From IMG/VR virus record IMGVR_UViG_2663763270_000002: 64,000 nucleotides of DNA; one strand, given 5' to 3'. Below, one piece after another: positions 596 to 59,693 of this stretch. Position numbers and translations under genes: made by a program. This stretch comes from an uncultured virus (IMG/VR IMGVR_UViG_2663763270_000002) (Duplodnaviria > Heunggongvirae > Uroviricota > Caudoviricetes). Within the stretch, counting starts at the first letter, position 1. Each line of letters opens with the position of its first letter. Under the pieces are notes generated by a model. It did not search any database. It was given only the letters and a program-made list of their open reading frames with translations, and was not told where the DNA came from.

Positions 596-596
596 G

Positions 597-40481: not shown

Positions 40482-40735
40482 GCGGTTTTCTCCTGTCGGG
40501 GGTAGCAGGAGCAGCGGCGGCGGCAGTGGCGACGGAACTGGGTTTCGCGTGCGGGGCAGCCGTTGCGGACCGCGATGGTGTGGAGGTCTGCGACGGCGCC
40601 GCCTCGTTCCAGGAACTCGGTGAATGCGGCGGCGTCACGTTTGTCGAGTTCGCTGAGCCATTCCCCTGTTTTGCAGGGCGGGCGCGGCTTTTCGAAAGCA
40701 GCTACTTCGTCTGCGAATGACATTCCGGCCTCCAT
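40478..40735 (-). CDS. Small Cys/His-rich protein
   Basis: C..RRHCRRRCSC; coupled to the phosphoesterase. Confidence 0.65.
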   Translation of the reverse strand: MEAGMSFADEVAAFEKPRPPCKTGEWLSELDKRDAAAFTEFLERGGAVADLHTIAVRNGCPARETQFRRHCRRRCSCYPRQEKTA

Positions 40736-40781
40736 AGTTTGTGATCAAAACTATGGTATCGCTGCTATGCAACCAGGGGTT

Positions 40782-42074: not shown

Positions 42075-42553
42075 TCGTCGCCCCCGTCGTCTTCGTCGCT
42101 GTTCTCAGCGTTCTTGTCGAGGGTGTATGCCGTGTGCAGTGCTTCGACAAGCTGGCCAACCATCGACTTGGATTCTTCGCTGACGTTGCCCTTGGCGTCT
42201 GCGACTACCTTCAACTCGGCGTGTTTGTACAGGCCGAGGAGTTTGGCTCGCTGGTCTTCGATCGCGAGCGCGCGGTCGATCTTCCACGTGTCGCCGTGTG
42301 TGGCGTCGTTCCAGATGCCCGCCAGCATCGCGTCGAACCGCTGCTGTTGGATCTCTATGTACTCTTCGGCGTTCTCGCGGGTGATGTCGCGGATGGCGTG
42401 GCTGATCCATTTGGAGACGGTGGTGCGGCTGACCCCCATCTGTTCGGCGATGTCGGCTTGCGAGATGCCCGATAGCCGGAGTTCGAGTGCCCGGTTGCGG
42501 CGTTCTTGGGTTCCCGCGCGCTGTTCCGGGGAGAGTGTGTGTTTGCGTGCCAT
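42071..42553 (-). CDS. terS: Terminase small subunit (HTH)
   Basis: ALELRLSG.SQADIAEQMGVSRTTV..RAKLLGL; upstream of TerL. Confidence 0.8.
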   Translation of the reverse strand: MARKHTLSPEQRAGTQERRNRALELRLSGISQADIAEQMGVSRTTVSKWISHAIRDITRENAEEYIEIQQQRFDAMLAGIWNDATHGDTWKIDRALAIEDQRAKLLGLYKHAELKVVADAKGNVSEESKSMVGQLVEALHTAYTLDKNAENSDEDDGGDE

Positions 42554-42687
42554 GCTGGCGTACCTCCAGGATGCGCGGCGACACCTGGCCGGTCGCGATC
42601 TGTTGGGGGTGGGGCGGCTGCCACCTGGGCAAGCCGGTGAAGTGTGTTGTCGAGGGTGCACACTGTTGAATGCGGTGCATGCTCGGT

Positions 42688-42909
42688 ATGCTGGCTGGTA
42701 TGGATGACCAGTTGGCGTTGCTGGCGCATTACGCGGATCAGATCGACCACTACACGCGTGCGCGGGATGTTCTGCTGGTCGAGTTGCGGTCCCGGGAGGG
42801 GCGTCGTCCGACGTGGGAGCAGTTGGCGGGCGCGTTGCGGTTGTCCCGTACTGGGGTGATCAAATTGTTCAAGCGGGTCAGCGGCGCAGCAGGTTCGACA
42901 CCTGCGTGA
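42688..42909 (+). CDS. Small HTH protein on the opposite strand
   Basis: TWEQLAGALRLSRTGV. Confidence 0.55.
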   Translation: MLAGMDDQLALLAHYADQIDHYTRARDVLLVELRSREGRRPTWEQLAGALRLSRTGVIKLFKRVSGAAGSTPA

Positions 42910-43144
42910 ACGGGTCCAGTCGGCGAGGGATGGCGCCGAGGAGGTGTGCTGCGGTGGTGATGATCGCTGCACGGGTGAGGACCGGGTGTTTGGTGATGCC
43001 GCGGGCGCAGGCTGCGGTGAGCAGTTCGTCTGCGGGGGCGGCGATTTCGTAGATGGTGACGACGGTGAGGAGGGCGAGCCAGGTGGGGCCGCCGCGGAGC
43101 CGGGACCGGTAGCCGTCCATGTCAGTCCTCGGCTTCGTCCTCAC
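42878..43144 (-). CDS. Small membrane protein
   Basis: WLALL..YEIAAP..ELLT..HL..DPF. Confidence 0.6.
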   Translation of the reverse strand: MRTKPRTDMDGYRSRLRGGPTWLALLTVVTIYEIAAPADELLTAACARGITKHPVLTRAAIITTAAHLLGAIPRRLDPFTQVSNLLRR

Positions 43145-43295
43145 GTACCAGCACGATGTCGCCCATCATCTGGGTTTGCGCCGACCACAGAGCGGTGACC
43201 AGGTCGGTTGGTGACACCTGCACGGGTTCGGGTGTGTCGATGGACAGTTCGAATGGGCCCAGTTTCAGGCGGAACTTCATCAGGGCCTCCCGTGG

Positions 43296-43574
43296 TCAGG
43301 CTTCGTCGTCGTTTTCTGCGAGGCTCTGCTTGAGGCGGGTGAGCCGGTGTTGCAGGAGTCCCATTTGGACGTGTGTGGGGACGCTGTCGTCGCGGGTGAA
43401 CGATCCGACTGATGTCCAGGTGTCGCCATCGTCGTCGATGCCGCGTCGAGTAGCGACAACGACGTAGTCGAGCAGGAGCCCGGGGTCGTCGTCTTCGCTG
43501 TAGATGCGCCATACGGTGTCGATTGCCTCGGTGAGGGCGTCGTCGGCGGCGACCTGGTCAGGCGTCCTCGGCAT
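43296..43574 (-). CDS. Hypothetical phage protein
   Basis: LLDYVVV..PTH..GLL; coupled ORF. Confidence 0.6.
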   Translation of the reverse strand: MPRTPDQVAADDALTEAIDTVWRIYSEDDDPGLLLDYVVVATRRGIDDDGDTWTSVGSFTRDDSVPTHVQMGLLQHRLTRLKQSLAENDDEA

Positions 43575-43779
43575 CCGATGTCTCCTGTTCGCGGCCGTCG
43601 AGGCTGTGGTGCCTGATCAGCCAGCCGTCAATACGTCCCGTAGCGCGGTTGGTGATGGCGTGCCGCTCAGGGCCGCAGACGCAATCGACGGCCTCGTGGT
43701 GGATCAGGTCACCCAATGGCCAGCCGTGAACTTCGTCTGCGGTGAGTTGCCTGATCGCCCAGGGTTTCTGTTGCGTCAT
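43558..43779 (-). CDS. His/Cys-rich hypothetical protein
   Basis: HGWPLGDLIHH..CVCGP..HHSLDGRE. Confidence 0.6.
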   Translation of the reverse strand: MTQQKPWAIRQLTADEVHGWPLGDLIHHEAVDCVCGPERHAITNRATGRIDGWLIRHHSLDGREQETSDAEDA

Positions 43780-43793
43780 GCGCGCCCCTGTCG

Positions 43794-44033
43794 CTAGTGC
43801 TGTTGCGCTTCCGACTTCCGACGCGAGCGGATTCCGTACAGGTTCGCGGCGCCATATGTGAACGCCGACAGCAGGAACCACCACTGCTGGGTGGAGACGG
43901 CGTAGGCGATCCACAGGGCTTGTACGGCGAGACCGATGCCGGGGCCGAGCAGCGACTTCGGGTAGCGGTAGACGCAAACCAACCCGGTCACGCCGATCAT
44001 GGTCAGCGCGAAAGACCACCACTGCGAGATCAC
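43794..44033 (-). CDS. Small PnuC-like membrane protein
   Basis: Three TM segments, QALWIAYA..QW. Confidence 0.55.
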   Translation of the reverse strand: MISQWWSFALTMIGVTGLVCVYRYPKSLLGPGIGLAVQALWIAYAVSTQQWWFLLSAFTYGAANLYGIRSRRKSEAQQH

Positions 44034-44272
44034 GCCACGCCCTTCTGCACCGCCGCCGCCCATTTGAGGTTGTCGGGTGAGAACCCGGACCAATGCTGGT
44101 CACCGGCGACGACCACGGGTGCCTGCTTGTAGCCGAGTGCGCGGATCGCGTCGCGTGCCTCCGCATCTTCGGTGACGTCGACGAGGGTGTAGACCGCGCC
44201 GAGCTGGTCGAGCTTCTTCTTCGTCGCCTTGCATGGCTGACAGTTCGGACGGGTGTAGACCTTGATCTCCAT
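44030..44272 (-). CDS. nrdH: NrdH-like glutaredoxin (second copy)
   Basis: VYTRPNCQPC..GYKQAPVV..WSGF. Confidence 0.9.
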   Translation of the reverse strand: MEIKVYTRPNCQPCKATKKKLDQLGAVYTLVDVTEDAEARDAIRALGYKQAPVVVAGDQHWSGFSPDNLKWAAAVQKGVA

Positions 44273-44435
44273 CAACCGCGGCCCGCCTCGGCGTACCGTC
44301 GCTGTGCCTCCGCCAGGGAATCGCACGCATCCGCGATATCGCGTCGGCCGGCATCCCTTTCGGCATCGGTTCCGGCGGCAGCGAGACGGCGTTGCGCCCT
44401 GAACAGGCCGATTTCGGCAATGGCGAGGTCAAAGC

Positions 44436-45419
44436 TCATGGAAAGCGGACTCCAAGATCAGGCAAGGGTGGAAGCGGCGGCAAGACGGGAATGTATGACT
44501 CGATCGGGCCGGGCACGTGGTCCAGCACCTCCGGCGGAAGCGCCGGCTCCACCCACTCGGGCACATAGTCACGGATCGGGGTCGGCGCGTACGGCTCCGG
44601 CGTGAACGCATCGATGATCGGGTTGACGTCCTGGATGGACGGCAGCGGACCCGGCTCCCACGTCGGCAGCGGCAACGGCTCTTCGATCGGAGGCAGTCCC
44701 GTGGGCGTGTTCTGGGGGATGTTCGGGTTCGGGGACGGCATCTCCACGAAGTGGTCACCCGGACCGAGGTCTTGCCCCTCCCCCGGCGCGTACCCGTGCC
44801 AGCCGGTCAGGAACCCGTGCGCACCCAACCCGAAGCGGACCGGATCCGACCAGGGGGCGGGGCTGTCGCACACGAAGTCGTACTCGTGGCACACCGACGT
44901 CACATTCGGGGCCACCTCACGATGGTCCGGGTTCGACGTGCCCGGGTAGATGCCAGGGATTGCGTCGTAGATGCCGCCCGGTCGGCGCGGATCACCGTAC
45001 ACCACAACCTCGTCCGCGAGATGCGCTTGATTCCCCGCGACCTCGGCGCCGAGGCTGTGCCCGATCACCTTCACATGCCCGCCGGGGCATTCCTGCCGGT
45101 AGGCGCCGATCCGCGCGGCGAGGGCTTGCTCACCCTCCGCGACGGACTGGTCCTTGGTGTACGGGCCGGTCGGCCACACACTCGACGTGTAGTCCAGGGA
45201 CTCGACGCGCGCGCCTTCCGCGGCGGCCTGGTCGAGGTGGGCGTCCATCATCGTGTGGGCGCCAGCAGCTTGGGCGGCCTGCTCGCCGTTGCCGCCAACA
45301 CCGATCACCAGTGGACGGCAGTCGGGTTCCGCGACGGCGGTGGGGGCGGCGAATCCGAGCGGACCCAGCCAGAATACGAGGGAAGCGGCGCAGGCGGCGG
45401 CGGTGGTGCGGCGAGACAT
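44436..45419 (-). CDS. Secreted cutinase-family serine esterase
   Basis: Signal peptide; CPG..GHSLG; GDP; C..DFVC..H; Pro-rich tail. Confidence 0.85.
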   Translation of the reverse strand: MSRRTTAAACAASLVFWLGPLGFAAPTAVAEPDCRPLVIGVGGNGEQAAQAAGAHTMMDAHLDQAAAEGARVESLDYTSSVWPTGPYTKDQSVAEGEQALAARIGAYRQECPGGHVKVIGHSLGAEVAGNQAHLADEVVVYGDPRRPGGIYDAIPGIYPGTSNPDHREVAPNVTSVCHEYDFVCDSPAPWSDPVRFGLGAHGFLTGWHGYAPGEGQDLGPGDHFVEMPSPNPNIPQNTPTGLPPIEEPLPLPTWEPGPLPSIQDVNPIIDAFTPEPYAPTPIRDYVPEWVEPALPPEVLDHVPGPIESYIPVLPPLPPLPDLGVRFP

Positions 45420-46037
45420 TGGCGCCTCCTGGCGCTCGTGATCAACAGAAGCTGAGGCCCGCCGGCTCCCGAGGTAGCGAAAACCGGCCGGCGGGCCGAC
45501 CGCGGCGCTTGCAGCTGCCTGCGGTCACGCCACCTGTGATGCCCTGCGGCCTGCGCGGCGTGAGATCGGCGCGGCGGCCCCGGGTGATTGGGGCACGAGG
45601 GTGGTGGCGAAACTTGCGGTGTTGGTTTGGGGTCACCAGGTAGGCACCGACTACCTTCTGCGTTACCTCACAGGGGAGGTCGCACCGCGCACGTAGGGGC
45701 GGTTAAGTCATTGGATCGAGCGCGGCTTCGCGCCTACGATCTGGGCATGGCGATCAAGGGGATCGAGAGCGCTCGCTTGAAGTTCGAGCATGCCGAGAGG
45801 CACCTCCAGGCGCTCACGAAGAGCGTGACGGACTTCGCCGACGGTCATCCTTGCCACTGCACGGTGGCGTGGGAGCGGAACCACCCTGAGTACATATGTC
45901 ATGTGGTGGTCAAGGAGGCATCCACCGTGCCTGACCTGGTCGCGCTACAAGCGTCCGATTACATCGGCAACCTGCGCGCGGCCCTCGATCACGCGGTGTA
46001 TACACGGGACTGATGCAGGATTCGGTGACAGGTTCGG

Positions 46038-46910
46038 TCACGCGGCCTGACTGGCCGGTGGGGTCATGATTACTTCGTATTCGACGGGCGTCAAACGCCC
46101 GAGGCCGGTCTGCCGGCGCCGCCGGTGGTAGGTGCGTTCGATCCAGGTGACGATCGCGATGCGCAACTCCTCACGCGTGGACCAGGATCGGCGGTCCAGG
46201 ACGTTGCGCTGCAAGAGCGCGAAGAAGCTTTCCATCGCGGCGTTGTCACCGGCCGCGCCTACCCTGCCCATCGACCCTGTCATGCCGTGACGAGTCAAGG
46301 CGTGCACGAACTTCCGGCTTCGAAATTGCGACCCGCGGTCGCTGTGAAGCACACATCCGGCAACGTCGCCGCGCCGGGCGACAGCATTGTTGAGTGCCCG
46401 GACCGCAAGCACCGACTTCATGCGGGAGTCGATGGAATACCCGACGATCCGGTTGGAGAACACGTCCTTCACTGCGCAGATGTAGAGCTTGCCCTCACCG
46501 GTCCAATGTTCGGAAATGTCCGATAGCCACAGCTGGTTCGGGGCATCGGCGGTGAAGTTGCGGCGGACCAGGTCCTCGTGCACCGGCGGGCCCGGTCTGC
46601 CCTTCCCGCCGCGCTTCTTGCCGAACACGCTCCACCAACCTCGTGCCGAGCAGATCCGCCACGCGGTGCGATCGGCCATCGGCTCGCCCGCGGCCCGAGC
46701 CTCGTCAGCGAGAAACCGGTACCCGAACTCCGGATCGTCACGGTGAGCATCGAACAGCGCGTTCGCTCGATACGCCTCGTCGAGTTCGGCAGTCGTAACC
46801 GGTTCGGCGAGCCACCGGTAGTAGGGCTGGCGGGCCAGCCCCAACACCCGGCACGTCACCGCGACGGGAATCCCGTCGTCGGCCAGCTCACGGACGAGCG
46901 GGTAGGTCAT
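46038..46910 (-). CDS. IS3 OrfB DDE transposase
   Basis: WLSDISE, HSDRGSQF, DNAAMESFF. Confidence 0.95.
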   Translation of the reverse strand: MTYPLVRELADDGIPVAVTCRVLGLARQPYYRWLAEPVTTAELDEAYRANALFDAHRDDPEFGYRFLADEARAAGEPMADRTAWRICSARGWWSVFGKKRGGKGRPGPPVHEDLVRRNFTADAPNQLWLSDISEHWTGEGKLYICAVKDVFSNRIVGYSIDSRMKSVLAVRALNNAVARRGDVAGCVLHSDRGSQFRSRKFVHALTRHGMTGSMGRVGAAGDNAAMESFFALLQRNVLDRRSWSTREELRIAIVTWIERTYHRRRRQTGLGRLTPVEYEVIMTPPASQAA

Positions 46911-47200
46911 TTTCCCGGCAGATTCGCCTGCGCAAAATAGGCGGCGGCTCGTTTGAGAACCTCGTTCTCCTGCTCCAGCAGCCGAATCCGGCGCCTGGCT
47001 TCCCGAAGCTCCGCCGCCTCGCTTGAGGTCATGCCCGGTTTCACACCATCGTCGACATCGGTTTGCCGCATCCATTTCGACAGCGTCATCGGGTGGATCC
47101 CGAAATCCGCGGCGACCTGCTCCAACGTCACCCCGTCATCACGGTTGCGAGCCACCCGGACGACATCGTCACGGAACTCGCGGGGATAAGGCTTGGGCAC
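46907..47200 (-). CDS. IS3 OrfA
   Basis: PKPYPREFRDDVV HTH; LEQENEVLKRAAAYF zipper. Confidence 0.93.
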   Translation of the reverse strand: MPKPYPREFRDDVVRVARNRDDGVTLEQVAADFGIHPMTLSKWMRQTDVDDGVKPGMTSSEAAELREARRRIRLLEQENEVLKRAAAYFAQANLPGK

Positions 47201-47827
47201 AGCGACATCCTTCCAGCCCACCCGAAGGCAAGCCACATCAGGTGTCACCTACCCCTGCAGCAGCCCCCACATGTGGTTGAGCACTGTGCGAAGAACGGCA
47301 TTGCATTGTCGCTTAGGGATGAACGGAACGTGAAATTCCCGATCATCGAATCGGAGAAGAAGATCCAGGACCAGACTTGGTTTTCGGCGCCAGTCTTGGA
47401 TGTGCTGGAGAAACACCAGCCGGGTCTTCTCCCCGACCCGCTCGACCATCCTTTGGCCCAGTTGAACAGGCTTGTGAACCACGACAAGCACCGGCTGATG
47501 CTCGTCACGAACAGTGCCTTCATCGAAAGCGACGTAGTCTACTCGGACGAGTTCGAGTTCGTGCGGGATGACAGTCCCCCCGACGGCGAGCTGCGACCTG
47601 GATACGAACTCGCGGCATGGGTGTTCCGCGCTACCGTCCCACAGCTGACGAGACACCCTCATCATCTGATCAAGATTGGGCAGATCGGCTACCACATCTC
47701 GATCGACTTGCCCGACAGCAACCGCTTCGAGCACCTGCTGCCGACGATGAACGCTATCCGCGATCGGGTGGGGCAGGTGCTTGACGACCTCGAAGCCGCC
47801 GGGGTCACTTAGCTTGCACCAGTCCGG

Positions 47828-48049
47828 TCACGAGCGTCGTTTGCCGCCGCCGGGCCAGCGCCCGAACACGATCCGGTAGTAGCGGGCTGCGAGCCCGGAC
47901 GCTTCACGCAGCGACATGTGTTGCAGCAGCAGTGTTTGCAACGTGATGAACGGATGCTCGGAGGTCGCCCACTTGGCTTTGCCTTCACCGGTCGTCCAGT
48001 ATTCGTTCAGCTCACGGGACGCACCGGTCTTGCCGTCAGGATCAGCCAT
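47828..48049 (-). CDS. Small hypothetical phage protein
   Basis: RBS AGGAGG; YWTTGEGKAKW..G.WPG. Confidence 0.65.
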   Translation of the reverse strand: MADPDGKTGASRELNEYWTTGEGKAKWATSEHPFITLQTLLLQHMSLREASGLAARYYRIVFGRWPGGGKRRS

Positions 48050-48170
48050 CACGCCTCCTGACATCGGGTCGGCAAGAGAACACCGGCCGCCCCCACCCGA
48101 AAGACGGGCGCGGTCGACCGGCAAGAAGGGGATAGCCTGGCTGCCGTTGCCGGGAGGGCAGGCTATTTCG

Positions 48171-48244
48171 TGGCGGTGTCGCGATTTGAACGCGAGACTC
48201 CAGCTTATGAGACTGGCGAGTTAACCGACCTTCTCCACACCGCT
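48171..48244 (-). tRNA. tRNA-Met(CAT), initiator-like body, no encoded CCA
   Basis: AGCGGTG/CACCGCC acceptor, CCAGT-CTCATAA-GCTGG anticodon arm, TCGCG-TTCAAAT-CGCGA T arm. Confidence 0.9.
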
Positions 48245-48752
48245 ATGCGGCAGGCGCCGAAGGGATCACGCCGTCCGGCCACCTGCCCTGTAGTCGCCCC
48301 GCGAACGGGACTGGTGAGCCGTTACCTCACTGCTCGGCATCCCGTGGTGCCGCAACGCTTACGCGGTGGCGGATGGCTGCCGTAGCCACACCATCCGCCA
48401 GTGAGGACCATCAGCCGAAAACGGAAAGCCCTCTACCGTTACCGCTCATCGCAGCTGACCGGCCTCGTCGTCCGGCGAGTAATCCGATCAGCCACTACCC
48501 GACCTACCGCAATAGACCAGGCCAAGTTAAGGGGTGGGGAGAGTTCCTAGCTCTCCGTCCGGGGCATGGACCGTAAGGCTATGTAATTCCCGGTGCTGCG
48601 ACTTGCCCGCTGAGGCATCGGTTTCCGCCCGCTAAGGCTTCCCCTCAGGCACTCGCCCGTCAGGTTCCCGACAGTCGCACACATTCGCGGCCCGATCACG
48701 CAGTAGCCGCTCACTCTGTCACCACCAGCGCGGCTAGCTAGGCCACGCTTTG
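48245..48752 (-). ncRNA. Candidate ~500-nt structured non-coding RNA
   Basis: No credible ORF; many nested helices; bracketed by two tRNA folds. Confidence 0.55.
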
Positions 48753-48841
48753 CTCCCCGCCCGCGATTCGAACGCGGACCCACCCTGGCCGCACCATCCG
48801 AGGCGCAAGCGCCGGCACTCTTTCCATTGAGCTAGCGGGGA
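48753..48841 (-). ncRNA. tRNA-like element with tRNA-Asn-like body and aberrant extended anticodon arm
   Basis: TCCCCGC/GCGGGGA+G, GCTC-AATGGAAA-GAGT, CCGCG-TTCGAAT-CGCGG; no 7-nt anticodon loop. Confidence 0.8.
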
Positions 48842-48976
48842 AACCGATATGAAGTTGTGGATTCCTTGGGCCGATCCACTGAAGGAGTGTGGTGGCAGCA
48901 CCACGGGCGACCAAGGCAAGTGGAGATGCCAAAACTGGGGCAATCTGCTTTTGGGTACAACTCACCCGCAAATCAG

Positions 48977-49033
48977 ATGGTAGGGCATGATCGGCGGCGG
49001 AAGCCCAATCGTTTGTAACAATTATGTTACAAA
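48977..49033 (-). promoter_or_regulatory. Putative promoter (-10 TACCAT) with AT-rich palindrome
   Basis: TTTGTAACA-ATTA-TGTTACAAA at 49012-49033. Confidence 0.6.
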
Positions 49034-49069
49034 TTTCGTTGAAGGATTGACTCCACCCTGCACCAGCAA

Positions 49070-50458
49070 CTAGACGCCGATCAATTGCCCCGCCAAATAC
49101 TCCTCCACCCGCGCCAACGACACCCGCTCCTGCGACATCGAATCCCGCTCACGCACCGTCACCGCCTGATCCTCCAACGAATCAAAATCCACCGTGATGC
49201 AGAACGGGGTGCCGATCTCGTCCTGGCGGCGGTAGCGGCGGCCGATCGCACCCGCGTCGTCGAACTCCACGTTCCAGTGCTTGCGCAGCTGCGCGGCCAG
49301 ATCCTTGGCCTTCGGGGTGAGGTCGGCGTTGCGCGAGAGCGGCAGCACGGCGGCCTTGACCGGGGCGAGCCTGCGGTCAAGGCGCAGCACCGTGCGCACG
49401 TCCACTCCGCCCTTGGCGTTGGGCGCCTCGTCCTCGGCGTAGGCGTCGACGAGGAACGCCATCAGCGAGCGGGTCAGACCGGCCGCCGGCTCGATGACGT
49501 AGGGGATGTAGCGCTCGTTGTTGGCCTGGTCGAAGTAGCTCAGCTCGGTGCCCGAGTGCTCGGAGTGCGTCTTGAGGTCGTAGTCGGTGCGGTTGGCGAC
49601 GCCCTCCAGCTCACCCCACTCGCTGCCCTGGAAGCGGAAGCGGTACTCGATGTCGACGGTGCGCGTCGAGTAGTGCGACAGCTTCTCCTTCGGGTGCTCG
49701 TAGAGGCGCAGGTTCTCCGGGTCGATACCCAGGTCGGTGTACCAGGCCAGCCGGGTGTCGATCCAGTACTGGTGCCACTGCTCGTCCTCGCCCGGCTTGA
49801 CGAAGAACTCCATCTCCATCTGCTCGAACTCGCGGGTGCGGAAGATGAAGTTGCCCGGGGTGATCTCGTTGCGGAAGCTCTTGCCGATCTGGGCGATGCC
49901 GAACGGCGGCTTCTTGCGCGCGGTGGTCTCGACGTTCTTGTAGTTGATGAAGATGCCCTGGGCGGTCTCCGGGCGCAGGTAGTGCAGGCCCTCCTCGTCG
50001 TCGACCGGGCCCAGGAAGGTCTTGAGCAGGCCGGAGAAGTTGCGCGGCTCGGTCCACCGGCCGGGCTCGCCGGTCTCGGGGTCGCGGATGTCGGCCAGGC
50101 CGTTGGCCGGCGGGTGGCCGTGCTTCTCCTCGTACGCCTCCAGCAGATGGTCGGCGCGGTAGCGCTTGTGCGTGATCAGCGACTCGACCAGCGGGTCGGT
50201 GAAGGTGGCGACGTGGCCGGAGGCCTCCCAGACCTGACGCGGCAGGATCACCGAGGAGTCCAGGCCGACGACGTCCTCGCGGCTGGTCACCATCGACCGC
50301 CACCACTGCCGCTTGATGTTCTCCTTCAGCTCCACCCCGAGCGGCCCGTAGTCCCAGGCCGACTTGGTGCCTCCGTAGATCTCACCGCACGGGTACACCA
50401 GCCCCCGGCGCTTGGCGAGGTTGGCAACGGTGTCCACCTTGGATTTGGTCTTTGACAT
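49070..50458 (-). CDS. glyS: Glycine--tRNA ligase (homodimeric class IIa)
   Basis: [55 protein letters not shown]. Confidence 0.98.
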
Positions 50459-50495
50459 GCGGCAGTGCTCCTGTCCAGGGCTGGCGGGGGATAGA

Positions 50496-50537
50496 CAACA
50501 GGCCCTAACCCTAGTCAGAGAGGGTTAGGGCCTGTTG
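50496..50537. terminator. Perfect 17-bp inverted repeat between thg1 and glyS
   Basis: CAACAGGCCCTAACCCT-8nt-AGGGTTAGGGCCTGTTG. Confidence 0.7.
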
Positions 50538-50551
50538 AGTGGGGTTCGCGG

Positions 50552-51235
50552 TCAGGCGGCGTTCTGTTCGGCAGGTGTGACGGACCTCAAGTACTCGTTG
50601 ATGTCTGTCCAGGTCCACTGCTCATGATGGATGGATTTGTCGGCGAGGATGAAGGTGCCGTTCTTCTCTCGCATGGACAGGGCCGCCCAGTTGATGCCCC
50701 TTGCGTGCAGCATGTCGTGGATCGCCGTCCGGTTCTTCCCGTGCAGCTCACGGTGTGAGAAGTGCGCGCGCGCCAGCATCTGCAACGAGTTCCGCGCCCA
50801 GTCCTGCTGGCGCCACACGAACACGTTCGGCGCGTCCGGCTGTGGCACCACGAACGCCCGCGAATCGAACACCGCCGTCGGCTTCTCTCGGAACAGCCGG
50901 TTGAAGTGCATCGTCATCGTCGACGCCGAGATCGACACCAGCTTGTTCACCTCGTACCCGAACCAGCCGGCCGTGTCGTGCGTATCGAAATCGGTCAGCA
51001 GGAACGTCGCCTCATCCGACTGGACATAGCCGAGCTTGAATCCCTGCATCTCCCGTGCAGTTTCCACCGCGGCGTCGACCATCGTCTGCATGAGGACGGG
51101 GTCGAACGGCCGCCGCATGCCGCGCGTGAACGTGTGGAACGCCTTGCCGTCGACCCGCAGGAACACGCACGAGTTCGGCGTGAGCCGGTAGTTCGAGGCG
51201 GCCTCGTAGGCTTTGATCCGGTCGCCGAGTTTCAT
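50552..51235 (-). CDS. Thg1-like tRNA(His) guanylyltransferase / 3'-5' polymerase
   Basis: RVDGKAFHTFT, YVQSDE, KLVS..AS, FDSR, WRQQD..RNS, KNG. Confidence 0.93.
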   Translation of the reverse strand: MKLGDRIKAYEAASNYRLTPNSCVFLRVDGKAFHTFTRGMRRPFDPVLMQTMVDAAVETAREMQGFKLGYVQSDEATFLLTDFDTHDTAGWFGYEVNKLVSISASTMTMHFNRLFREKPTAVFDSRAFVVPQPDAPNVFVWRQQDWARNSLQMLARAHFSHRELHGKNRTAIHDMLHARGINWAALSMREKNGTFILADKSIHHEQWTWTDINEYLRSVTPAEQNAA

Positions 51236-51492
51236 GCCGCCTCCTGGTGTTCGACGGGTACGGCTCGAAACACGGACCGGTTCGGCGCCGACCGTGCAGG
51301 TTCGAGAAGGCGGTACGTCCATGTCCCGTTCGCGCAGCGGAATGTGACCGGGTTGCCGTCCCTGGACACGAACTCGCTGGGTAATTCGGCAAGGAACTCC
51401 TGGGTGATCGAGATGCGTGGCAGCGGGTTGACGCACTCGATTGCGCTGGCGCCGTCGTCCCGCAGGCGGGCCCGGAAGTACATCACGGTCAC
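51232..51492 (-). CDS. Hypothetical protein
   Basis: Start/stop overlaps on both sides. Confidence 0.55.
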   Translation of the reverse strand: MTVMYFRARLRDDGASAIECVNPLPRISITQEFLAELPSEFVSRDGNPVTFRCANGTWTYRLLEPARSAPNRSVFRAVPVEHQEAA

Positions 51493-52307
51493 GCTGCCGC
51501 CTCGAACAATCCGATCTGCTGGACAAGCTCGCCCTTTGCTCCCGCGGGCGCGACGGCGAGGTTGCAGGCTGTGAAGTCGACGGTCACGATCTCCGTAGCT
51601 GGCGATACCCCATGCCAGTCCTCCTGGTGGGAGCTGGTGTCGATGCCGCAGTTCGGCTCCAACACGATCCCCGTTTCCCGTACGAACTTGTCGTACTCGC
51701 GGCCGCCGGTCCCGTCCTGGTAAAACGGTTTGCCGCTGTAGTCGAACGGCGCCGACATTTGCGGAATGATGAACACCCCATAGTCGGCCACCTGCGCGGC
51801 GACCGCGATCACGTGGTACTCGAACTTTCGGGACGTGCAGCCGGGCGCGTTCTTGGATCGTTTGATCGCCCCGAACGGCGGGTTTCCGATCGCCACATCG
51901 AACCACCCCAGCCCCATGTCGGGCACGTCGAGGATGTCGCCGCAAATCCAGGTCGCTTCGGGCAGGATCTTCCGGCCGACACGTACGTAGTCGGGATTGC
52001 GCTCCACGCACACGAACTCGCGCTCCGGGTCGCCGGCCCAGCGGTTACGGCACCCGTGCGAGAGACGTCCGATCCCCGCGCCGAGGTCGATCAACCGACC
52101 GAACCGGCCGGTCAACTCGACAGAGAAGTCTTGCGCCAACCCTGCCGGGGTGAAAAACGCCCCGTGCGTGGAGTTCGCGGCAGTCGACATCTCCTGGAAG
52201 TTGTCGAGCACAAACGACTTCTCGTCCTCGGTGAGATCACGGTCGAGATCGACGAGAGCAAGCGCTTCAGCGTGCAGCTTCTCCTGCTGCTTCGTCATCT
52301 TCCCCAC
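51489..52307 (-). CDS. SAM-dependent amino-methyltransferase (likely DNA adenine)
   Basis: GAFFTP, DLGAGIG, GNPPFG. Confidence 0.85.
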   Translation of the reverse strand: MGKMTKQQEKLHAEALALVDLDRDLTEDEKSFVLDNFQEMSTAANSTHGAFFTPAGLAQDFSVELTGRFGRLIDLGAGIGRLSHGCRNRWAGDPEREFVCVERNPDYVRVGRKILPEATWICGDILDVPDMGLGWFDVAIGNPPFGAIKRSKNAPGCTSRKFEYHVIAVAAQVADYGVFIIPQMSAPFDYSGKPFYQDGTGGREYDKFVRETGIVLEPNCGIDTSSHQEDWHGVSPATEIVTVDFTACNLAVAPAGAKGELVQQIGLFEAAA

Positions 52308-52900
52308 TACACTGCCTCCACTTGGAGTGCGCCGCGGATGTCGGGCGGCGTCCAGTCGGCAGGCTTCAAGATCTTGCCGTCGTCCCGTCGAATGACCTTG
52401 CCGTCCACGAATTTCGCGAAGTTGGATCGCGCGACCTCGGCCCACACCCGGTCCAGTGGTATCCGCAGCAGGACAGCGAGGGCGGACAGCTGGTACATGC
52501 CGCGATGCCCGAGCACGTCGGTGTCGATCAGGTTCCGGGCGTGGATCGCGCGCCGCAGTCGGTTGTCGGTGGCGTGGAGTTCGTCGATGACGGTTTCCAT
52601 CGCTGCGTCGGGCAGGTCTTCCCAGGTGGGCGGGTGTGGTGAGGGGGTGATGAGGTCGATGTAGTCGCGGGCGAGACCGAGCCGCAGCAGCAGTCCTGCG
52701 CGTACCCAGAGCCCGTCAGCGATGGCGTCGGCCGTTTCGATCATGTCGCGTTCGCGGAGCGCGGTTGCGAGTTCGTCGCGTTCTTCTTTGACGAGGCGGT
52801 AGGCCAGGTCGAGGTCGGCTTGGTTGACCCATCCGGGAGTGGGGCGGAGGGGTACGCCTGCGGTGTGGTTCCAGTCGGCGACGTCGGTCCAGAAGGTCAT
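52307..52900 (-). CDS. MazG-like all-alpha NTP pyrophosphatase (tandem domains)
   Basis: EE.DEL..ETADAIAD; V..SN..K..RRDDGKILKP.DW.PP. Confidence 0.8.
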   Translation of the reverse strand: MTFWTDVADWNHTAGVPLRPTPGWVNQADLDLAYRLVKEERDELATALRERDMIETADAIADGLWVRAGLLLRLGLARDYIDLITPSPHPPTWEDLPDAAMETVIDELHATDNRLRRAIHARNLIDTDVLGHRGMYQLSALAVLLRIPLDRVWAEVARSNFAKFVDGKVIRRDDGKILKPADWTPPDIRGALQVEAV

Positions 52901-54012
52901 TGGGCGGCTGATTCCATTCGGTCGTCGAGGTAGGTCATGGCGCGGAGTACGAGTTGGCGCAGGCGGTCGAGGTGGAGGCGGGCACCGAACTCGTCACCGT
53001 GTGCGTGGGCGGACTCGAAATCTGCTGCGGTGGAGGTGATGTCGGCACGGACTTGGCGTTCGTCCTCGGTGGTGGGGTGTTTCCACAGCCTGTGGATCGC
53101 CATCCGCTCTGCTGTGGATTCGACGCGCCATTGCACAGACGGGTGGTACTGAGCGCTGCCGTGCTCGATGTCCCATGTCATGTAGGTGGCCTCGGTCATC
53201 TGCTCGGTGGTGATGTACTCACCCCATTGCTTGAATAAAAACGGCACCCCGGCGGCGGTGCACTGGTCGCGCAGCGAGCGGGCCCACTCGGGGTGCATCG
53301 GCCGGGCGCCGCGGCCCGATTCCCCGCCGACGATCACCCAGTCGAGCTTTTCCGCAGCGGCTTCCCACCGGCCGGGGTGCCCGTACCGCCCATTCAGGGC
53401 GTCGAGATGCGTGGCGGTGCCTGCCTGGAACGGGATTCTGGTGAGGTCCACCGGCCCGAGAAGCGGTTCGGCGCTGACGAAGCGGACGGCAGCCGAGGTA
53501 CCAAGCAGGGTAGGAATGCGGAGGTTCGCCCAGTGCTGGTTCTCGGCGGAGACGCCGAGCCACACGTTCGGGAGCGGCCACGGCGCGTCGTAGATCGCGG
53601 TCGCCGTGTCCTCGTCCGTCGCGGCTTCGAGGAGCCGCTGCGCGCCGTCGACCCGGTCGCCGAGTAGAGACCGCATGCGGCCCGGCCGCTTCGTCAGGAT
53701 CTGGAACGTGTGCTGCGGCGCTCGCGCCATCGTCGCGAAAACCCGCGCGATGAACTCGTCAGGCACGTCCTTGTGGAACAGGTCCGACATGCTGTTGACG
53801 AACACGCGCCGCGGCTTCCTCCACCGCAGAGGTTCACCCAACCGCTCCGGCCGCAACGTCACCCCGAATCCGTTGGGAAACTGCGGCGTTCCCGCGAACC
53901 GGTGCGCGATGCCCTCGGCGTAGCAGTGGTCACAGCCCGGCGAGACCTTGTCGCAGCCTGTTACCGGCGACCAAGTTGAATCAGTCCACTCGATCTTGGT
54001 AGTAGCGCCCAT
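52897..54012 (-). CDS. DUF5131 / Gp37-Gp68 radical-SAM-like protein
   Basis: TKIEWTD.TW.PVTGC..SPGCDHCYA, SMSDLFH, WVIVGGESG, FKQWG. Confidence 0.92.
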   Translation of the reverse strand: MGATTKIEWTDSTWSPVTGCDKVSPGCDHCYAEGIAHRFAGTPQFPNGFGVTLRPERLGEPLRWRKPRRVFVNSMSDLFHKDVPDEFIARVFATMARAPQHTFQILTKRPGRMRSLLGDRVDGAQRLLEAATDEDTATAIYDAPWPLPNVWLGVSAENQHWANLRIPTLLGTSAAVRFVSAEPLLGPVDLTRIPFQAGTATHLDALNGRYGHPGRWEAAAEKLDWVIVGGESGRGARPMHPEWARSLRDQCTAAGVPFLFKQWGEYITTEQMTEATYMTWDIEHGSAQYHPSVQWRVESTAERMAIHRLWKHPTTEDERQVRADITSTAADFESAHAHGDEFGARLHLDRLRQLVLRAMTYLDDRMESAAQ

Positions 54013-54293
54013 CAGGCTGCCCACTTTGCGTTTCGCCGAATCCGCAGGATTGCGGTGTGGCTCACGCCGTAATCCGCGGCAACGATTCGCGAGGGCCGAT
54101 TGTCGAACCCGTACCATCCGAGCTTGGAGGATGTGCCTGTCTCGTCGGCGCGCGCGAACCTGTCGGCTGCGGCGTGCTCGTAGGTCGATTCCAGCTCGGC
54201 TCGACTGCCGCACCGGATCGGCGCGTCCATGACGGACGAGTAGACGACGTAGAAGTCCTCGTCACGGGTCGGTTTGATGATCGTGTGGCTCAT
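54012..54293 (-). CDS. Hypothetical protein
   Basis: Coupled ORF; RFARADETGTSS. Confidence 0.55.
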   Translation of the reverse strand: MSHTIIKPTRDEDFYVVYSSVMDAPIRCGSRAELESTYEHAAADRFARADETGTSSKLGWYGFDNRPSRIVAADYGVSHTAILRIRRNAKWAA

Positions 54294-54296
54294 GGT

Positions 54297-54860
54297 TCAG
54301 CTCCAGAGGTGCGGCAGGATGTCGATGAAGTCGTGGCGTGCCTGCTGGATGCGTTCATGCCAGGCGTCTTCGCGGGCCTGTTGGGCGTCGTAGATCGCCC
54401 GCTCCTCGCCTACTCGGGGCTTCATGCGGAAGCTGCCGTCAGGTTGCGGAATGAACTCTCCGGGCGGCTCCAGCACAGCCATTTCTTCCTCAGTGAAGCG
54501 CGGTCTCGGTTCCGACAGACGGGCGATCAGGTCTTCGAACGATTCACGGAACCGCTCGCGGTCGAGGACGCTGTAGTCGAGGTGATAGCGCAGCGACGCG
54601 GCAGCGAACTCGTTGAAGCTGGCGTCGAACTCGTCGAGCATCCAATCCACCGACGGCTTGCGCTCGAACCCGACCAACTTCCAGTAGGGCTGTGCGCGCC
54701 CGTGGAGGGTGATGTCCCAGGGGCCGAGCGGCATCAACCACACGTGTTCACGGCAGCGGCCGCGGGCGTGTCCCCACCGGGGTTCCCCGTCCGGGTCGGG
54801 GTAGTGGGTTTGGATGCTGAGCCACCAGCGCAGCAGTGGCACCCGGAGAGAGCAGTACAT
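54297..54860 (-). CDS. Hypothetical protein, possibly leaderless
   Basis: 187-aa ORF; -10-like TATGCT just before the ATG. Confidence 0.55.
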   Translation of the reverse strand: MYCSLRVPLLRWWLSIQTHYPDPDGEPRWGHARGRCREHVWLMPLGPWDITLHGRAQPYWKLVGFERKPSVDWMLDEFDASFNEFAAASLRYHLDYSVLDRERFRESFEDLIARLSEPRPRFTEEEMAVLEPPGEFIPQPDGSFRMKPRVGEERAIYDAQQAREDAWHERIQQARHDFIDILPHLWS

Positions 54861-54904
54861 GACCCAAGCATAGTTTAGTGTCTATACTCCGGTCTAGTCT
54901 GCAT

Positions 54905-55672
54905 TCACTGCATGTCGATGATGGCGGTGTTGTCGGCGATGGGTGCGTGGTCTCCGTCGAGGATGTGCACCATGGTCGAGTAGCGTTCACCGTTCAATCT
55001 GGTGTCGAGGCGGCAGTGGTAGTGGCCAGCGAACAGGCGCTTCGGTTGCACGACGTCGACGACCCCGCGGAGGACGCGACGGTTGAGTTCGGCTGCGTAG
55101 ATCTGGGCCTCAGGGAACCTGAATGGGTTGCCTTCGATGCACGGGATTCGGATGCCGGCGGGTACGTCGTGGCAGATCATGATGTCGGCGGGTCCGCCTT
55201 CACAGGCGCGGAGGGCGTCGGCTGTGGTGATGGTTTCGCCTGGCCACCATTCGATGTGTGGGCGACGCCAGGGCCGGTCAACGCTGTGCGCGCCGCCCAT
55301 CGCGAGTAAGCGGACTCCGTTCCAGGTCCATCGGTATCCGCGGGGCAGGTACCAGATGCGGGGCCGGATGGGGATGGCGGTGTGGCCGTGGTCCCTGACG
55401 AGTTCGGCGAGCAGGGTGTGGTTGTCGTGGTTGCCGTCGACCCAGCCGAGGACGAGGCCGGTCTCTTCGAGTGCGTCTTGGACGTGATCGAGGAAGTCTG
55501 GTGACCCGTCGAAGTTCTCGCGCATGTCGTAGGCGAAGTCGCCGACATGCAGGATCATCTGTGCACCCTGCTGGGCTGCGTAGGTGATGGTTTTGCGTGC
55601 GTAGGCGGCGTTCGCATGCCAGTCACCACAAACTGCGATCCGGGACGGCTGCAACACCTCGAAGGCAGTCAT
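54905..55672 (-). CDS. Metallophosphoesterase
   Basis: GDWH, GDF, GNHD, HD, GHYH. Confidence 0.9.
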   Translation of the reverse strand: MTAFEVLQPSRIAVCGDWHANAAYARKTITYAAQQGAQMILHVGDFAYDMRENFDGSPDFLDHVQDALEETGLVLGWVDGNHDNHTLLAELVRDHGHTAIPIRPRIWYLPRGYRWTWNGVRLLAMGGAHSVDRPWRRPHIEWWPGETITTADALRACEGGPADIMICHDVPAGIRIPCIEGNPFRFPEAQIYAAELNRRVLRGVVDVVQPKRLFAGHYHCRLDTRLNGERYSTMVHILDGDHAPIADNTAIIDMQ

Positions 55673-55687
55673 GAACTGCTCTCTTCT

Positions 55688-55975
55688 TCAGTCATCGTCG
55701 TCTCCGGGTTCGGGGTCGAGGGTGTGTGTGGTGATGTAGTAGCCGTCGACGGCGTAGTAGTCGTCGTCATCGATGTCAGGACTGGGGGTTTCGATGTGCG
55801 TGTACAGGGTGTTGTCCTGTCCGAAACCCATCGTGTTCCAGATCAGGTCGTCGCGGCGGGTTCGTTTCGCAACATAGGCTTGCGCCTTCTCGACCGTTGA
55901 GAAGCTGGCGACAGGGTAAGAGCGTCCGCCGAGATCCTCATCACCTAGGTATTCGAGCAGGTAGATGGTGGTCAT
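55688..55975 (-). CDS. Acidic hypothetical protein
   Basis: RBS AGGAG; coupled ORF. Confidence 0.55.
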   Translation of the reverse strand: MTTIYLLEYLGDEDLGGRSYPVASFSTVEKAQAYVAKRTRRDDLIWNTMGFGQDNTLYTHIETPSPDIDDDDYYAVDGYYITTHTLDPEPGDDDD

Positions 55976-56184
55976 TCGTGTTCTCCTGCTGGTCCGAGTT
56001 CGCCGTGGTAGCGGCCGAGCGCTGCCCAGGCGAGGCGATGGCGGAGGGACGCGTACTGGCCGATGCGGTGCATGTCGGCGAGTTCGTCGAACGTGCACCC
56101 GAGGTCGTTGAGGGCGTTACGGATCGCGATCCGGGTGTCCTGGTCGGTGACGTAGATGATCTCGGCTTTGCCGACGATTCTCAT
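55972..56184 (-). CDS. Hypothetical protein
   Basis: RBS GGAG; coupled ORF. Confidence 0.5.
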   Translation of the reverse strand: MRIVGKAEIIYVTDQDTRIAIRNALNDLGCTFDELADMHRIGQYASLRHRLAWAALGRYHGELGPAGEHE

Positions 56185-56636
56185 TCGTTCTCCATGAGGC
56201 GCGAGTCATTGGACGGACCTTCGTGACTTCGCTCAGCCGGTAAAGCCTCACCACGGGCTCGTCACTGCCGGGGAGGTTGACAGCGACATGGACAACTGTG
56301 GGACCGACATAGATGACGGTGCCTTCGTCGCGGCGGGGACCGAAGGGAACGGTCACCGTGTCGCCGGGTTTCAGCGTCCCCATCCGAGCCTCCTGATCGC
56401 GCGGACCGCGGCTTGCTCGTGGCGGCGGCACACCCAATGCTCGCCCGGGTACTCGCCGTCCTCGTCGCCGGTTTCGATGCGGAACGGCCAACCGTGCGCG
56501 ACGTTGTCGATCACGCACCACCAGAACGTGCCCGGACAGTGGGTGAAGATGCCCCGTTGATGGAAGTCCCACCACCACGCGGCCGCCCGCGCCCGCCAAC
56601 CAGTCATAGCATCTATTCTAATCGGGCGTGTCCACC

Positions 56637-57290
56637 CTATTCGAGTACACCGTCCGGGAGGCTGGCGCCGATCGCCGCCGCGAGACCGAGGAAATGCTCG
56701 GGCGCCCAGTTGGTGTCGCAGGCTTGGCAGACAGCCGAGGACTTGGTCGCCCGCAACGCTGCTCGCCGCACCATCTCCCCTGCCTCGTCCTCGACGAGCA
56801 CGGTGGTTTCACCGCAGGCGGGGCAGGCCGCGGTGAGTTCCCACGTGTGGAGGGGCTCGGCGGGGAGGAGGGTGTCGATGCGGTCGACCCAGCCCAGAAT
56901 GATGCGGGTCATGACGTTCAGACCGGGTAGGTCTTGGGGCCGCCAGGGGTGGTCGGTGAGGGCGTGGAGTCGTCGGATGGTGGCGGGTTGGCGTGGGTCT
57001 CCGGGCGCTGGGGTGGGCCACCATTCGTGGACGGTGCGGTCGATTTGGTCGAGGAGGCTACAGGCGTCGATCCACAGGGGCGGTTTGCTTTTGTAGACGC
57101 CGCGGAGCCCGTTGGTGTCGTGCTGGGCGTGTCGGGCTTCGGTGAGTTCGGTGTAGCGGCCGTCGAGGATGATGTGTCGGGTGGTGTTGTCGTCGGTGAT
57201 GGTGTCGGGGCGGTGGCCGACGAGGGCGTGCACGGCGTCGGTGAATGCGACGACGGCGCCGGCGAGAAGTTCAGCCGTGTACTCGCTCAT
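56637..57290 (-). CDS. Zinc-ribbon protein, possible phage transcription regulator
   Basis: SKPPLWIDA; CPAC..CQAC..W. Confidence 0.7.
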   Translation of the reverse strand: MSEYTAELLAGAVVAFTDAVHALVGHRPDTITDDNTTRHIILDGRYTELTEARHAQHDTNGLRGVYKSKPPLWIDACSLLDQIDRTVHEWWPTPAPGDPRQPATIRRLHALTDHPWRPQDLPGLNVMTRIILGWVDRIDTLLPAEPLHTWELTAACPACGETTVLVEDEAGEMVRRAALRATKSSAVCQACDTNWAPEHFLGLAAAIGASLPDGVLE

Positions 57291-58302
57291 CCCTGTGGTC
57301 TCCTTCGTCCTCGACCTGTTTGCGGGCTTCGCGTTCGCGTTGCGCCCGCTCGCGTTCATTGATGACTCGACGGCCCGTCGATTCGAGGCGAGCGGCAGTG
57401 ATCTCGTGAGCAGCGCGCTCGTCCTCCAGCGCTTTACGCAATGCCGCGATCCGGGCTGGAAGTCGTGTTCGAAGCGGTCGGCGAGTTCGTCTGCGTGGGC
57501 GAGGATGCTGGCCGCGCTGTAGTCGCCGTCGAGGATGTCGCGGGGATGTTTCCGGTCGCGGTGTTCGCGTGGTCGGGGCCGGTTCAGCATTGGCAGTCCG
57601 TCCAGTGGAGTCCGCAGGCGGTGCAGTGGTCGCGGTCGTCGAGCCAGTCCGCCATGTCGTCGTAGTCGTCAAGCAAGGCCGTCGCGCGCCCTCTCACGCT
57701 CTTGCTGCTCATCTCGGAGACGGGCGAGGGCGACCTTGGTGGCCCGGCCGAGTCGCCACGACCAGTAGATCGAGCAGGCGCTGACAGCAACGGCGGCAAT
57801 CGAAACGGCGATGGACAGAACCGCGATCAACACAGCTACTCCTGGTCTCCGAGTAGGTCCTTGGTTGTGAGTGGACGTCGTGTGTGCATGAGCGCGTGGA
57901 CGACTTGCAGTGCGCGGATATCGGCGGCAGCGAGTGGTGGACCATCCCATAGTTCGCAGCCGTGGGATACGCAGGTGATGCGCACTCGCGCCCGGCTACT
58001 CATCGGCGAGGACGTCGTTGATGCCTGTGGACGATGCCACCAGGCGACCAAGAATAGGAGGCAGGCACACAAGCCACGCAACAAACACTGCCAGCAACGC
58101 CACACCGCTAATCGCAATCCGGTTCATCGGGCTCGAACTCGCAATCCATGTCGTAGAAATCCCCCAGATCGTCGGGCAAGAATGGGTCATCGCCGTACTC
58201 GACCGGGCTGTTCAAGCCGCTCATCGGTTTCTCCCTTGCCTCGTTAATTCAAGGCTAACCGACCACGTCAACCTGAGAATTCACGCCGAAACCGATACCG
58301 TT

Positions 58303-58770
58303 TCACGGCCGCCATTCGTCGCGATAATCCGAGTGGCCTCCCCAGATGGAGGCGATATACCGCACTGTCTGGCACGGCCAGCCCGGACCAGCCGCATACC
58401 CGTCACCGTGACAGGGGTCGCACCAGGCGACCGGCATATACTTCGACGGCGGCCGACATTCGTGCAGCGCCAACAACGCTCGAAACACCTGCGCCAGCCC
58501 GTACACGCGCGCAGGATCGAACTCCGCGATCAACGACGCAACATCGACACTACGCGGACCCCCACCCCACTCCCCCTCGCACATCGGCGGATTCCGCCCA
58601 TTCACCGAAACTAGGTCTCGGAACTCGTCAAGCTCCCACCGCTCGGGCTCCCACGGCGGTCGCTTGGCCGGATACTTCACCGTCACCCGCCGCAACTCTG
58701 TCGAATCCCTGGCCAGCGCCTCCCACTCCCTGAGCCTGGCCTCGATGAATTCCGCGATTTCGACTGTCAT
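58303..58770 (-). CDS. DUF6221-family protein
   Basis: IAEFIEARL..DPARV..WPC.T...A..W..H.DY..EW.P. Confidence 0.75.
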   Translation of the reverse strand: MTVEIAEFIEARLREWEALARDSTELRRVTVKYPAKRPPWEPERWELDEFRDLVSVNGRNPPMCEGEWGGGPRSVDVASLIAEFDPARVYGLAQVFRALLALHECRPPSKYMPVAWCDPCHGDGYAAGPGWPCQTVRYIASIWGGHSDYRDEWRP

Positions 58771-58798
58771 TGGTCCACCCAAGATCTCGCCTGGCAGC

Positions 58799-59620: not shown

Positions 59621-59642
59621 CTGATTTTGTCCTCCCACGTAA

Positions 59643-59675
59643 ACTGCCCGGTCACCTCAACGGTAACCGGGCAGT
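59643..59675. terminator. Hairpin after the moron gene
   Basis: ACTGCCCGGT..ACCGGGCAGT. Confidence 0.55.
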
Positions 59676-59693
59676 CAACCTGGTAACGCAGGT

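Follow-up and report, generated by a model that had tools for sequence, protein, structure and literature searches.

Aminoacyl-tRNA synthetases encoded by viruses are known mainly from giant viruses and from huge phages that exist only as metagenome assemblies, and their function is hard to test. In the accounts cited here, genes for such enzymes are reported from phages with genomes larger than 200 kb (Al-Shayeb et al. 2020; PMC7162821); the psbA and psbD genes of cyanophages are described as host-like genes in which intragenic recombination between host and phage has taken place (Sullivan et al. 2006; PMC1484495). Actinobacteriophages carry arrays of tRNA genes, which have been proposed to counter tRNA-targeting defences or to serve lysogeny (PMC10264068; PMC10865867).

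We describe here a gene for glycyl-tRNA synthetase (glyS, encoding GlyRS) found in an uncultured virus record (IMG/VR IMGVR_UViG_2663763270_000002), of which a stretch of 64,000 nucleotides, hereafter the window, was analyzed. Set against the huge-phage synthetases as that account presents them (PMC7162821), this one belongs to a temperate siphovirus of about 79 kb integrated in a cultured actinobacterium; it is a single synthetase gene, has no cognate phage tRNA, and is for the most part identical to the host allele. It resembles cyanophage psbA and psbD, as described (PMC1484495), in being a host-derived auxiliary gene that has been kept while segments were exchanged with the host, with mosaics visible in base composition. 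It differs from them in that its product is an essential enzyme of translation and not a photosystem protein, and in that the two partners, prophage and host locus, share one chromosome, a situation resembling gene conversion between paralogs. With the tRNA arrays of the cited actinobacteriophage studies (PMC10264068; PMC10865867) it shares the nature of its cargo, which is translation related, its place in the same genomic module, and its carriage by phages of mycolic-acid actinobacteria, but it specifies the charging enzyme and not a tRNA. Compared with the housekeeping GlyRS of Nocardia and mycobacteria (PDB 8t5n and the host's own copy), family, length, and domains are equal, whereas location, leader, both protein ends, and codon usage at the ends are different.

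Among 50,697 deposited phage records, none has a GlyRS match of at least 60% identity; five have any match at all, each at 49–51% identity and none in an actinobacteriophage. The best terminase match among deposited phages is only 49% identical (Streptomyces SV1-like phages), so the deposited collection holds no close cultured relative of this phage. No published description of a phage or prophage glyS of this kind was found in the open-access literature.

The gene is an uninterrupted open reading frame of 462 codons running from an ATG start to a TAG stop (Table 1). Its product matches the equivalog NF003211 at 667.6 bits (cut-off, 312), with residues 9–455 aligned to positions 2–454 of the 454-position profile, and the equivalog TIGR00389 at 477.3 bits (cut-off, 243.3); the description of an intact 462-residue GlyRS in the earlier note on this DNA, made from the letters alone, is thus borne out across the whole length. 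The Pfam domains tRNA-synt_2b (residues 155–336) and HGTP_anticodon (residues 368–456) both score above their cut-offs, and the protein has the class II catalytic core and C-terminal HGTP anticodon-binding domain that define the family. The nearest solved chain is the GlyRS 8t5n (E = 1.2e-260). Just 14 amino acids differ from the host GlyRS, all within the first 4 and the last 35 or so alignment positions (4 N-terminal and 10 C-terminal residues); residues 5–445 of the alignment are those of the host enzyme, and because this core is the same, the catalytic residues are probably intact. The prophage GlyRS looks like a canonical, working enzyme that is predicted to charge tRNA-Gly.

Table 1. Coordinates of features in and around the prophage glyS (window positions)
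Feature	Position	Strand	Basis or remark
Siphovirus prophage, part inside the window	14462..64000	-	PHROGs, Pfam, GC; continues to about C2:2,569,750
IS element, rve transposase	46006..47268	.	Pfam rve; 3 copies on C2, 100% identical
Phage tRNA-Met	48170..48244	-	ARAGORN; Rfam tRNA at 48171-48244, 52 bits
Conserved noncoding element, after degenerate tRNA-like gene (48752-48841)	48505..48790	-	Identity across prophages
glyS, intact class II dimeric-type glycine--tRNA ligase, 462 aa	49070..50458	-	ORF, NCBIfam, Pfam, PDB
Phage-type glyS 3' end, last 41 codons and stop	49070..49193	-	Diverged from host; GC3
Putative conversion tract, host-type	49194..50435 (CDS nt 24-1265)	-	99.8% identity to host glyS
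Phage-type first codons and 5' leader with Shine-Dalgarno (AGGAG)	50436..50513	-	Homology to L043
Terminator-like hairpin between Thg1-like gene and glyS	50503..50520	-	Consensus scan, 7 pairs
Thg1-like tRNA 5'-end repair / 3'-5' nucleotidyltransferase	50552..51526	-	Pfam Thg1, 6.7e-27; phrog_4717, 2.8e-85
RlaP-family nucleotidyltransferase, RNA-repair associated, same early operon	58799..59638	-	Pfam RlaP, 4.8e-48

The prophage that carries glyS is a siphovirus of roughly 79 kb in a Nocardia genome. It forms an island (C2:2,570,000–2,650,000) with a GC content of 0.60–0.70, most 2-kb windows lying between 0.62 and 0.67, against 0.70–0.71 for the genome, and nearly all of its genes lie on the minus strand. 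The first genes in order, beyond the window, encode RecE/RecT, a replication initiator, and methyltransferases. Inside the window they are followed by genes for RusA, a beta clamp, the RlaP nucleotidyltransferase, a metallophosphoesterase, a DUF5131 protein, a methyltransferase, the Thg1-like protein, and GlyRS. After glyS come a tRNA-like gene, tRNA-Met, the IS element, a LysB-like cutinase, a small-terminase-like helix-turn-helix protein, the large terminase, and portal, then capsid and tail genes, a tape measure protein of 1,694 amino acids, minor tail proteins, a LysA with LGFP repeats, and a holin. The gene directly upstream of glyS also matches the Thg1-like protein of PDB 4kgk (E = 5.3e-45).

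The earlier note had placed glyS inside a prophage, between phage-type genes and with no host housekeeping neighbours, and on each of these points the fuller analysis agrees. The genes on both sides are of phage type by PHROGs and Pfam matches and lie on the same strand as glyS; no host housekeeping gene occurs between about 14.4 kb and 64 kb of the window; and the siphovirus genes flanking glyS stand in an order collinear with that of related prophages in other species. The IS element lies 1.8 kb from glyS, inserted between two small plus-strand open reading frames that are adjacent to each other in the related prophage L043. The terminator-like hairpin upstream of glyS is one of four over the whole region, where 2.8 were expected from shuffled sequence, so there is no excess of such hairpins. 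A scan with the sigma-70 consensus, which fits Actinobacteria poorly, found no promoter-like site for the glyS region, and Rfam found no T-box or other leader RNA upstream of the gene.

The left flank of the prophage (truB and an ideR-like repressor) is conserved in all four close relatives, up to about position 12,745 of locus L005; the right flank (window 7000–14400) has a counterpart in none of the four. Two other contigs carry repeats of the 8 kb from the last phage gene to the contig end. No tyrosine or serine integrase (PF00589, PF00239) was found inside C2:2,570,000–2,649,500; integrase-like matches occur in the repeat copies, just beyond the point at which the contig ends. There is no convincing direct repeat between the prophage ends that could represent att sites, the best same-orientation match being 16 nt (E = 0.034); a 20-nt match (E = 1.4e-4) is in inverted orientation. 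Window positions 1–3036 come from the opposite end of contig C2, which was joined as though circular, and recur at C2:59487–62522. Positions 3037–10626 recur on contig C3 (99.8%), and C1 begins with a copy of 3037–6253 (99.25%). The cell may therefore lack the junction at 3036/3037. Near the start of C2, close to an amidase-bearing repeat, seven tRNA matches fall within 1.3 kb (G000:C2:38167–39451), possibly another phage with a tRNA array.

The genome that harbours the prophage comprises 6.46 Mb in five contigs with a GC content of 0.70–0.71, and it contains exactly two GlyRS matches. The earlier note had proposed a search for a second glyS in its normal chromosomal context, since its reading would fail if the prophage gene were the only one. 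That second gene is present at C1:2692816–2694192, next to a divergent ArsR/SmtB–Fur/Zur pair and with uppS and recO 3–5 kb further on, the arrangement known from mycobacteria. Because this copy holds the canonical chromosomal context, the prophage glyS is an extra copy. Host gene neighbourhoods fit a mycolic-acid actinobacterium.

Comparison of the two copies divides the prophage gene into three parts. Its core (CDS nucleotides 24–1265) differs from the host glyS on C1 at two positions, both synonymous changes in Gly codons, and GC3 in the core is 0.971 in both genes. Over the last 121 nt, in contrast, nucleotide identity falls to 68.6%, GC3 is 0.805 against 0.976 in the host, and dS between the copies is 2.8; the first 23 nt of the coding sequence have likewise diverged. 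GC3 of the neighbouring phage genes is 0.78–0.83. The DNA flanking the two copies is unrelated. The longest run of matches between the two genes covers 517 of the 728 variable sites in the alignment (permutation p ≤ 0.0005).

The core is the native allele of the host species and is also found in prophage-free strains. Raw reads of one such strain (X23) cover only positions 49194–50448, and their loose ends continue into host flanking sequence; eleven further runs (X4–X14) each contained a fraction of 0.45–0.48 of the sampled words, which is the share of the core only. Since the core sequence occurs in strains without the prophage, conversion ran from host to prophage. The prophage glyS is thus a mosaic of phage and host sequence, a feature that the earlier note had missed, and it most probably arose by recent gene conversion with the host allele as donor.

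The ends of the gene point to other prophages. When the window tail was compared with 67 GlyRS genes, its best matches were two other prophage copies (81.3% and 77.2%; median, 67.5%). Homology with one of these, L043, extends 55 nt upstream of the glyS ATG, and the leader common to the window and L043, and in part to L039, is unlike the leader conserved in three host genes. As a protein the tail is not distinctive: a search of the C-terminal 48 residues against 5.8 billion proteins gave 6,235 matches, many of them ordinary actinobacterial GlyRS at 77–85% identity, and yielded no further phage glyS copies. It is the nucleotide-level comparison and the leader only that are informative.

A set of 151 genomes of the genus Nocardia was used to trace the gene further. 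GlyRS is present in 150 of them and in two full-length copies in seven; an eighth genome (G009) has fragmented matches only. Second glyS copies in related prophages number three, those of the window, of G016 (L039), and of G138 (L042, identical to the IMG/VR contig L043). In these three prophages, from three species, glyS occupies one and the same slot, with the early genes ahead of it and the tRNA array behind. Related prophages were defined by a terminase at least 62% identical to that of the window, which 11 of the 151 genomes have; glyS is thus carried by 3 of 11 and is missing from the three closest relatives (terminase identity 86, 81, and 76%), and the gene is therefore dispensable. In one of these close relatives (L051, in G028) the Thg1 gene is followed directly by the conserved noncoding element described below, so the glyS cassette is cleanly present in some prophages and absent from others. 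Between prophages with and without glyS, the spacers after Thg1 and after glyS do not align at the edges of the cassette.

The L039 glyS has a phage-like GC3 of 0.81 along its whole length. Between L039 and L043, dS is 0.66 and dN/dS 0.142, a ratio that indicates long retention under purifying selection in the related prophages. In a quick maximum-likelihood protein tree (IQ-TREE, with SH-aLRT support only), the three prophage GlyRS fall inside the Nocardia clade (SH-aLRT 98); they do not form one clade, and each lies near its own host. For the G016 prophage, the gene of its own host is the best match in 9 of 12 sliding windows. We read these scattered positions as probable traces of repeated conversion by resident host genes, though they would also fit independent capture.

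The relatives differ in what surrounds this slot. In the G016 prophage a Ro/TROVE+VWA-like protein, an RNA ligase, and Pnkp are encoded in a row upstream of glyS (L039:139–4851), a fuller RNA-repair set than that of the window. In the G049 prophage (terminase identity 81%) this slot is filled by 13 tRNA genes, tRNA-Gly(tcc) among them, and glyS is missing (L050:7617–9308). A further GlyRS paralog, 75–80% identical to the window protein, occurs in four of the 151 genomes (G006, G034, G046, and G079). These loci (L035–L038) fall together in a single clade (SH-aLRT 99), separate from that of the housekeeping Nocardia copies, and each adjoins genes for a radical SAM enzyme, PhyH dioxygenases, and a TrmO_N-like protein, a neighbourhood resembling a biosynthetic cluster equipped with a GlyRS of its own. 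The window gene was considered as a self-resistance synthetase of such a cluster and rejected in view of its host-identical core and phage context.

Where present, glyS heads the phage tRNA array. All relatives have tRNA genes after this slot, from 1 to 13 each. In the window ARAGORN reports tRNA-Met and a doubtful 90-nt "tRNA-Ala" without Rfam support, and no tRNA-Gly, as the earlier note had remarked. Between glyS and the array lies a conserved element of about 270 nt that is 80–87% identical in eight of nine distinct related prophage loci, whereas the neighbouring proteins are only 45–70% identical among related Nocardia prophages. RNAalifold pairs it in 73 positions, 11 of them with compensatory changes, and closes it with a GGUGG/CCACC helix. 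The element at 48505–48790 matches no Rfam family; the one sub-threshold match near glyS, to DUF3800-IV, lies at 48862–48919 (48.5 bits against 60.7). We regard the element as a candidate new phage RNA. One relative encodes a Ro/TROVE-like protein, and a Y-RNA-like role may be conceivable.

Independent sequence data bear both on the reality of the mosaic and on the state of the prophage. Two near-identical stretches of 1.24 kb in one genome can mislead assemblers, and the contig ends near the prophage are repeat-rich; the mosaic might thus be an artefact of assembly or polishing, or glyS might be host DNA caught between two phage remnants. These possibilities are largely refuted, and we rate them highly improbable. 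Logan contigs of X3, an independent isolate that bears a different organism label, contain a prophage about 99% identical to that of the window, and single contigs bridge each junction, a 1,175-nt contig that between tail and core and a 40,654-nt contig that at the 5' end; assembly therefore did not create the mosaic, which travels with the phage. Its glyS differs from the window's at 3 of 124 nt in the tail and by three listed differences in the core. The X3 core is not collapsed with that isolate's own glyS, and double depth is limited to unitigs of 36–38 nt. In X1 and X2, which probably represent the source strain, the core unitig continues along two paths, one into phage flanks and one into host flanks, which is the pattern expected of two real copies. 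As for host DNA between remnants, the gene order on both sides of glyS is collinear with that of related prophages, and the canonical host locus lies elsewhere.

Sequencing depth differs between the two loci. In X1 the phage-flank unitigs have depths of 577–612 and the host glyS flank contig 252–270 (ratio, 2.1–2.4); in X2 the corresponding values are 661–711 and 97 (ratio, 6.8–7.3); in X3 they are 36–40 and approximately 30–35, the latter inferred from shared short unitigs (ratio, about 1). The depth of the glyS contig matches the phage flanks and not the host flank. If C2 runs into C1, as the overlap of the two contigs suggests, the two glyS loci lie about 1.9 and 1.7 Mb from the origin, with dnaA at C2:706 kb; both being similarly far from dnaA, a replication gradient does not explain the excess. 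Variable and non-integer as it is, the excess suggests that the prophage excises and replicates in part of the culture, contig depth being an indirect measure of copy number.

We consider it probable that glyS is an ancestral gene of a phage translation module that was recently gene-converted by the host allele. It would have been carried for a long time by a group of Nocardia siphovirus prophages, at the head of the tRNA array and beside genes for tRNA and RNA repair. During residence in the host lineage, homologous recombination with the chromosomal glyS would have swapped in 1,242 nt of the interior, so that phage-type sequence survives only in the leader, at the first codons, and over the last 41 codons, and the protein is the host enzyme except at both ends. 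A simpler history, in which host glyS was picked up once and recently by illegitimate recombination and rides along as a functionless passenger or "moron," strikes us as distinctly unlikely. It would account for a core 99.8% identical to the host gene, for the grouping of each prophage GlyRS with its own host in the tree, and for the lack of glyS in 8 of the 11 related prophages. Simple capture, however, would not leave diverged homologous ends, and is for that reason disfavoured: both ends are homologous to the host gene yet strongly diverged, with phage-like codon usage (tail dS 2.8, GC3 0.805). The leader shared by the window and L043, the common slot in three prophages of three species, and a dN/dS of 0.14 between the two other prophage copies also argue against it. 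Repeated capture into the same slot is a less likely alternative to repeated conversion.

A role in counter-defence, in which extra GlyRS offsets an attack on tRNA-Gly, on Gly-tRNA, or on GlyRS itself (by GNAT toxins, anticodon nucleases, or a GlyRS inhibitor), seems to us unlikely. Several observations would suit it: the neighbouring genes for tRNA and RNA repair (Thg1-like and RlaP here; RNA ligase, Pnkp, and Ro/TROVE-like in L039), the paralog in the radical-SAM/PhyH/TrmO-like cluster of four of the 151 genomes, which could serve self-resistance, and a huge phage reported in the cited account to have a CRISPR spacer against the host GlyRS gene (PMC7162821). Against it, the host genome yielded no toxin or defence system directed at glycine decoding, the protein core is the same as that of the host enzyme and hence no insensitive variant is present, and no phage tRNA-Gly accompanies the gene. 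The Pfam model for the TacA1 antitoxin (PF08681) has no match in the genome but was likewise silent in all 14 control genomes, and its silence here speaks neither for nor against such a role. Of the earlier note's "auxiliary translation or anti-toxin" gene, then, the auxiliary translation part is favoured by context (the tRNA array, the repair genes, and the recurrence of the slot), whereas the anti-toxin part found no support.

For the gene-converted phage cargo gene that we prefer, replacement by host sequence was tolerated, and the simplest function is therefore that of an ordinary GlyRS made from a phage transcript, as opposed to an enzyme of altered specificity or an insensitive one. The translation and RNA-repair module to which it would belong has as members the Thg1-like and RlaP proteins in the window and the RNA ligase, Pnkp, and Ro/TROVE-like protein in L039. 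We infer that glyS would be transcribed with the phage early/middle operon and the tRNA array during lytic growth and would be packaged. The phage would presumably benefit from added GlyRS activity that keeps the charging of Gly-tRNA from limiting phage translation, or that buffers this charging against host shut-down. Supply of a glycine-rich virion was considered and rejected: glycine makes up 8.1% of residues in prophage open reading frames overall and 8.2% in late genes, against 9.3% in 287 host open reading frames. Gly codon use is the same in prophage and host frames. With a phage proteome that is not glycine-rich, no special demand for Gly-tRNA is visible; nor is there a phage tRNA-Gly with glyS.

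A more speculative reading, to which we give a low but appreciable probability, is that glyS forms a standing patch of homology between phage and chromosome that moves glyS alleles between Nocardia lineages, combined with a dosage-based shield for the infected or lysogenic cell; on this view the charging of glycine may be contested in Nocardia. Its first part is based on the glyS of X3, which bears an organism-A-type core under another organism label, and its second on the GlyRS-paralog cluster of relatives, which could mark production of a compound directed at GlyRS.

Phage-borne aminoacyl-tRNA synthetases and intragenic recombination between host and phage were both known already; what is added here is a well-documented instance in which a prophage gene and an essential host gene have evolved in concert. 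A full-length synthetase in an ordinary-sized temperate phage of a cultured actinobacterium provides a culturable system in which virus-borne translation enzymes can be tested. Natural comparisons are available, between related prophages with and without glyS and between alleles with and without host conversion, and the signs of prophage replication would permit experiments on deletion, expression, and burst size. As the mosaic shows, an essential gene can evolve in concert in a prophage and its host, and the host allele of such a gene can be brought by a phage into another lineage.
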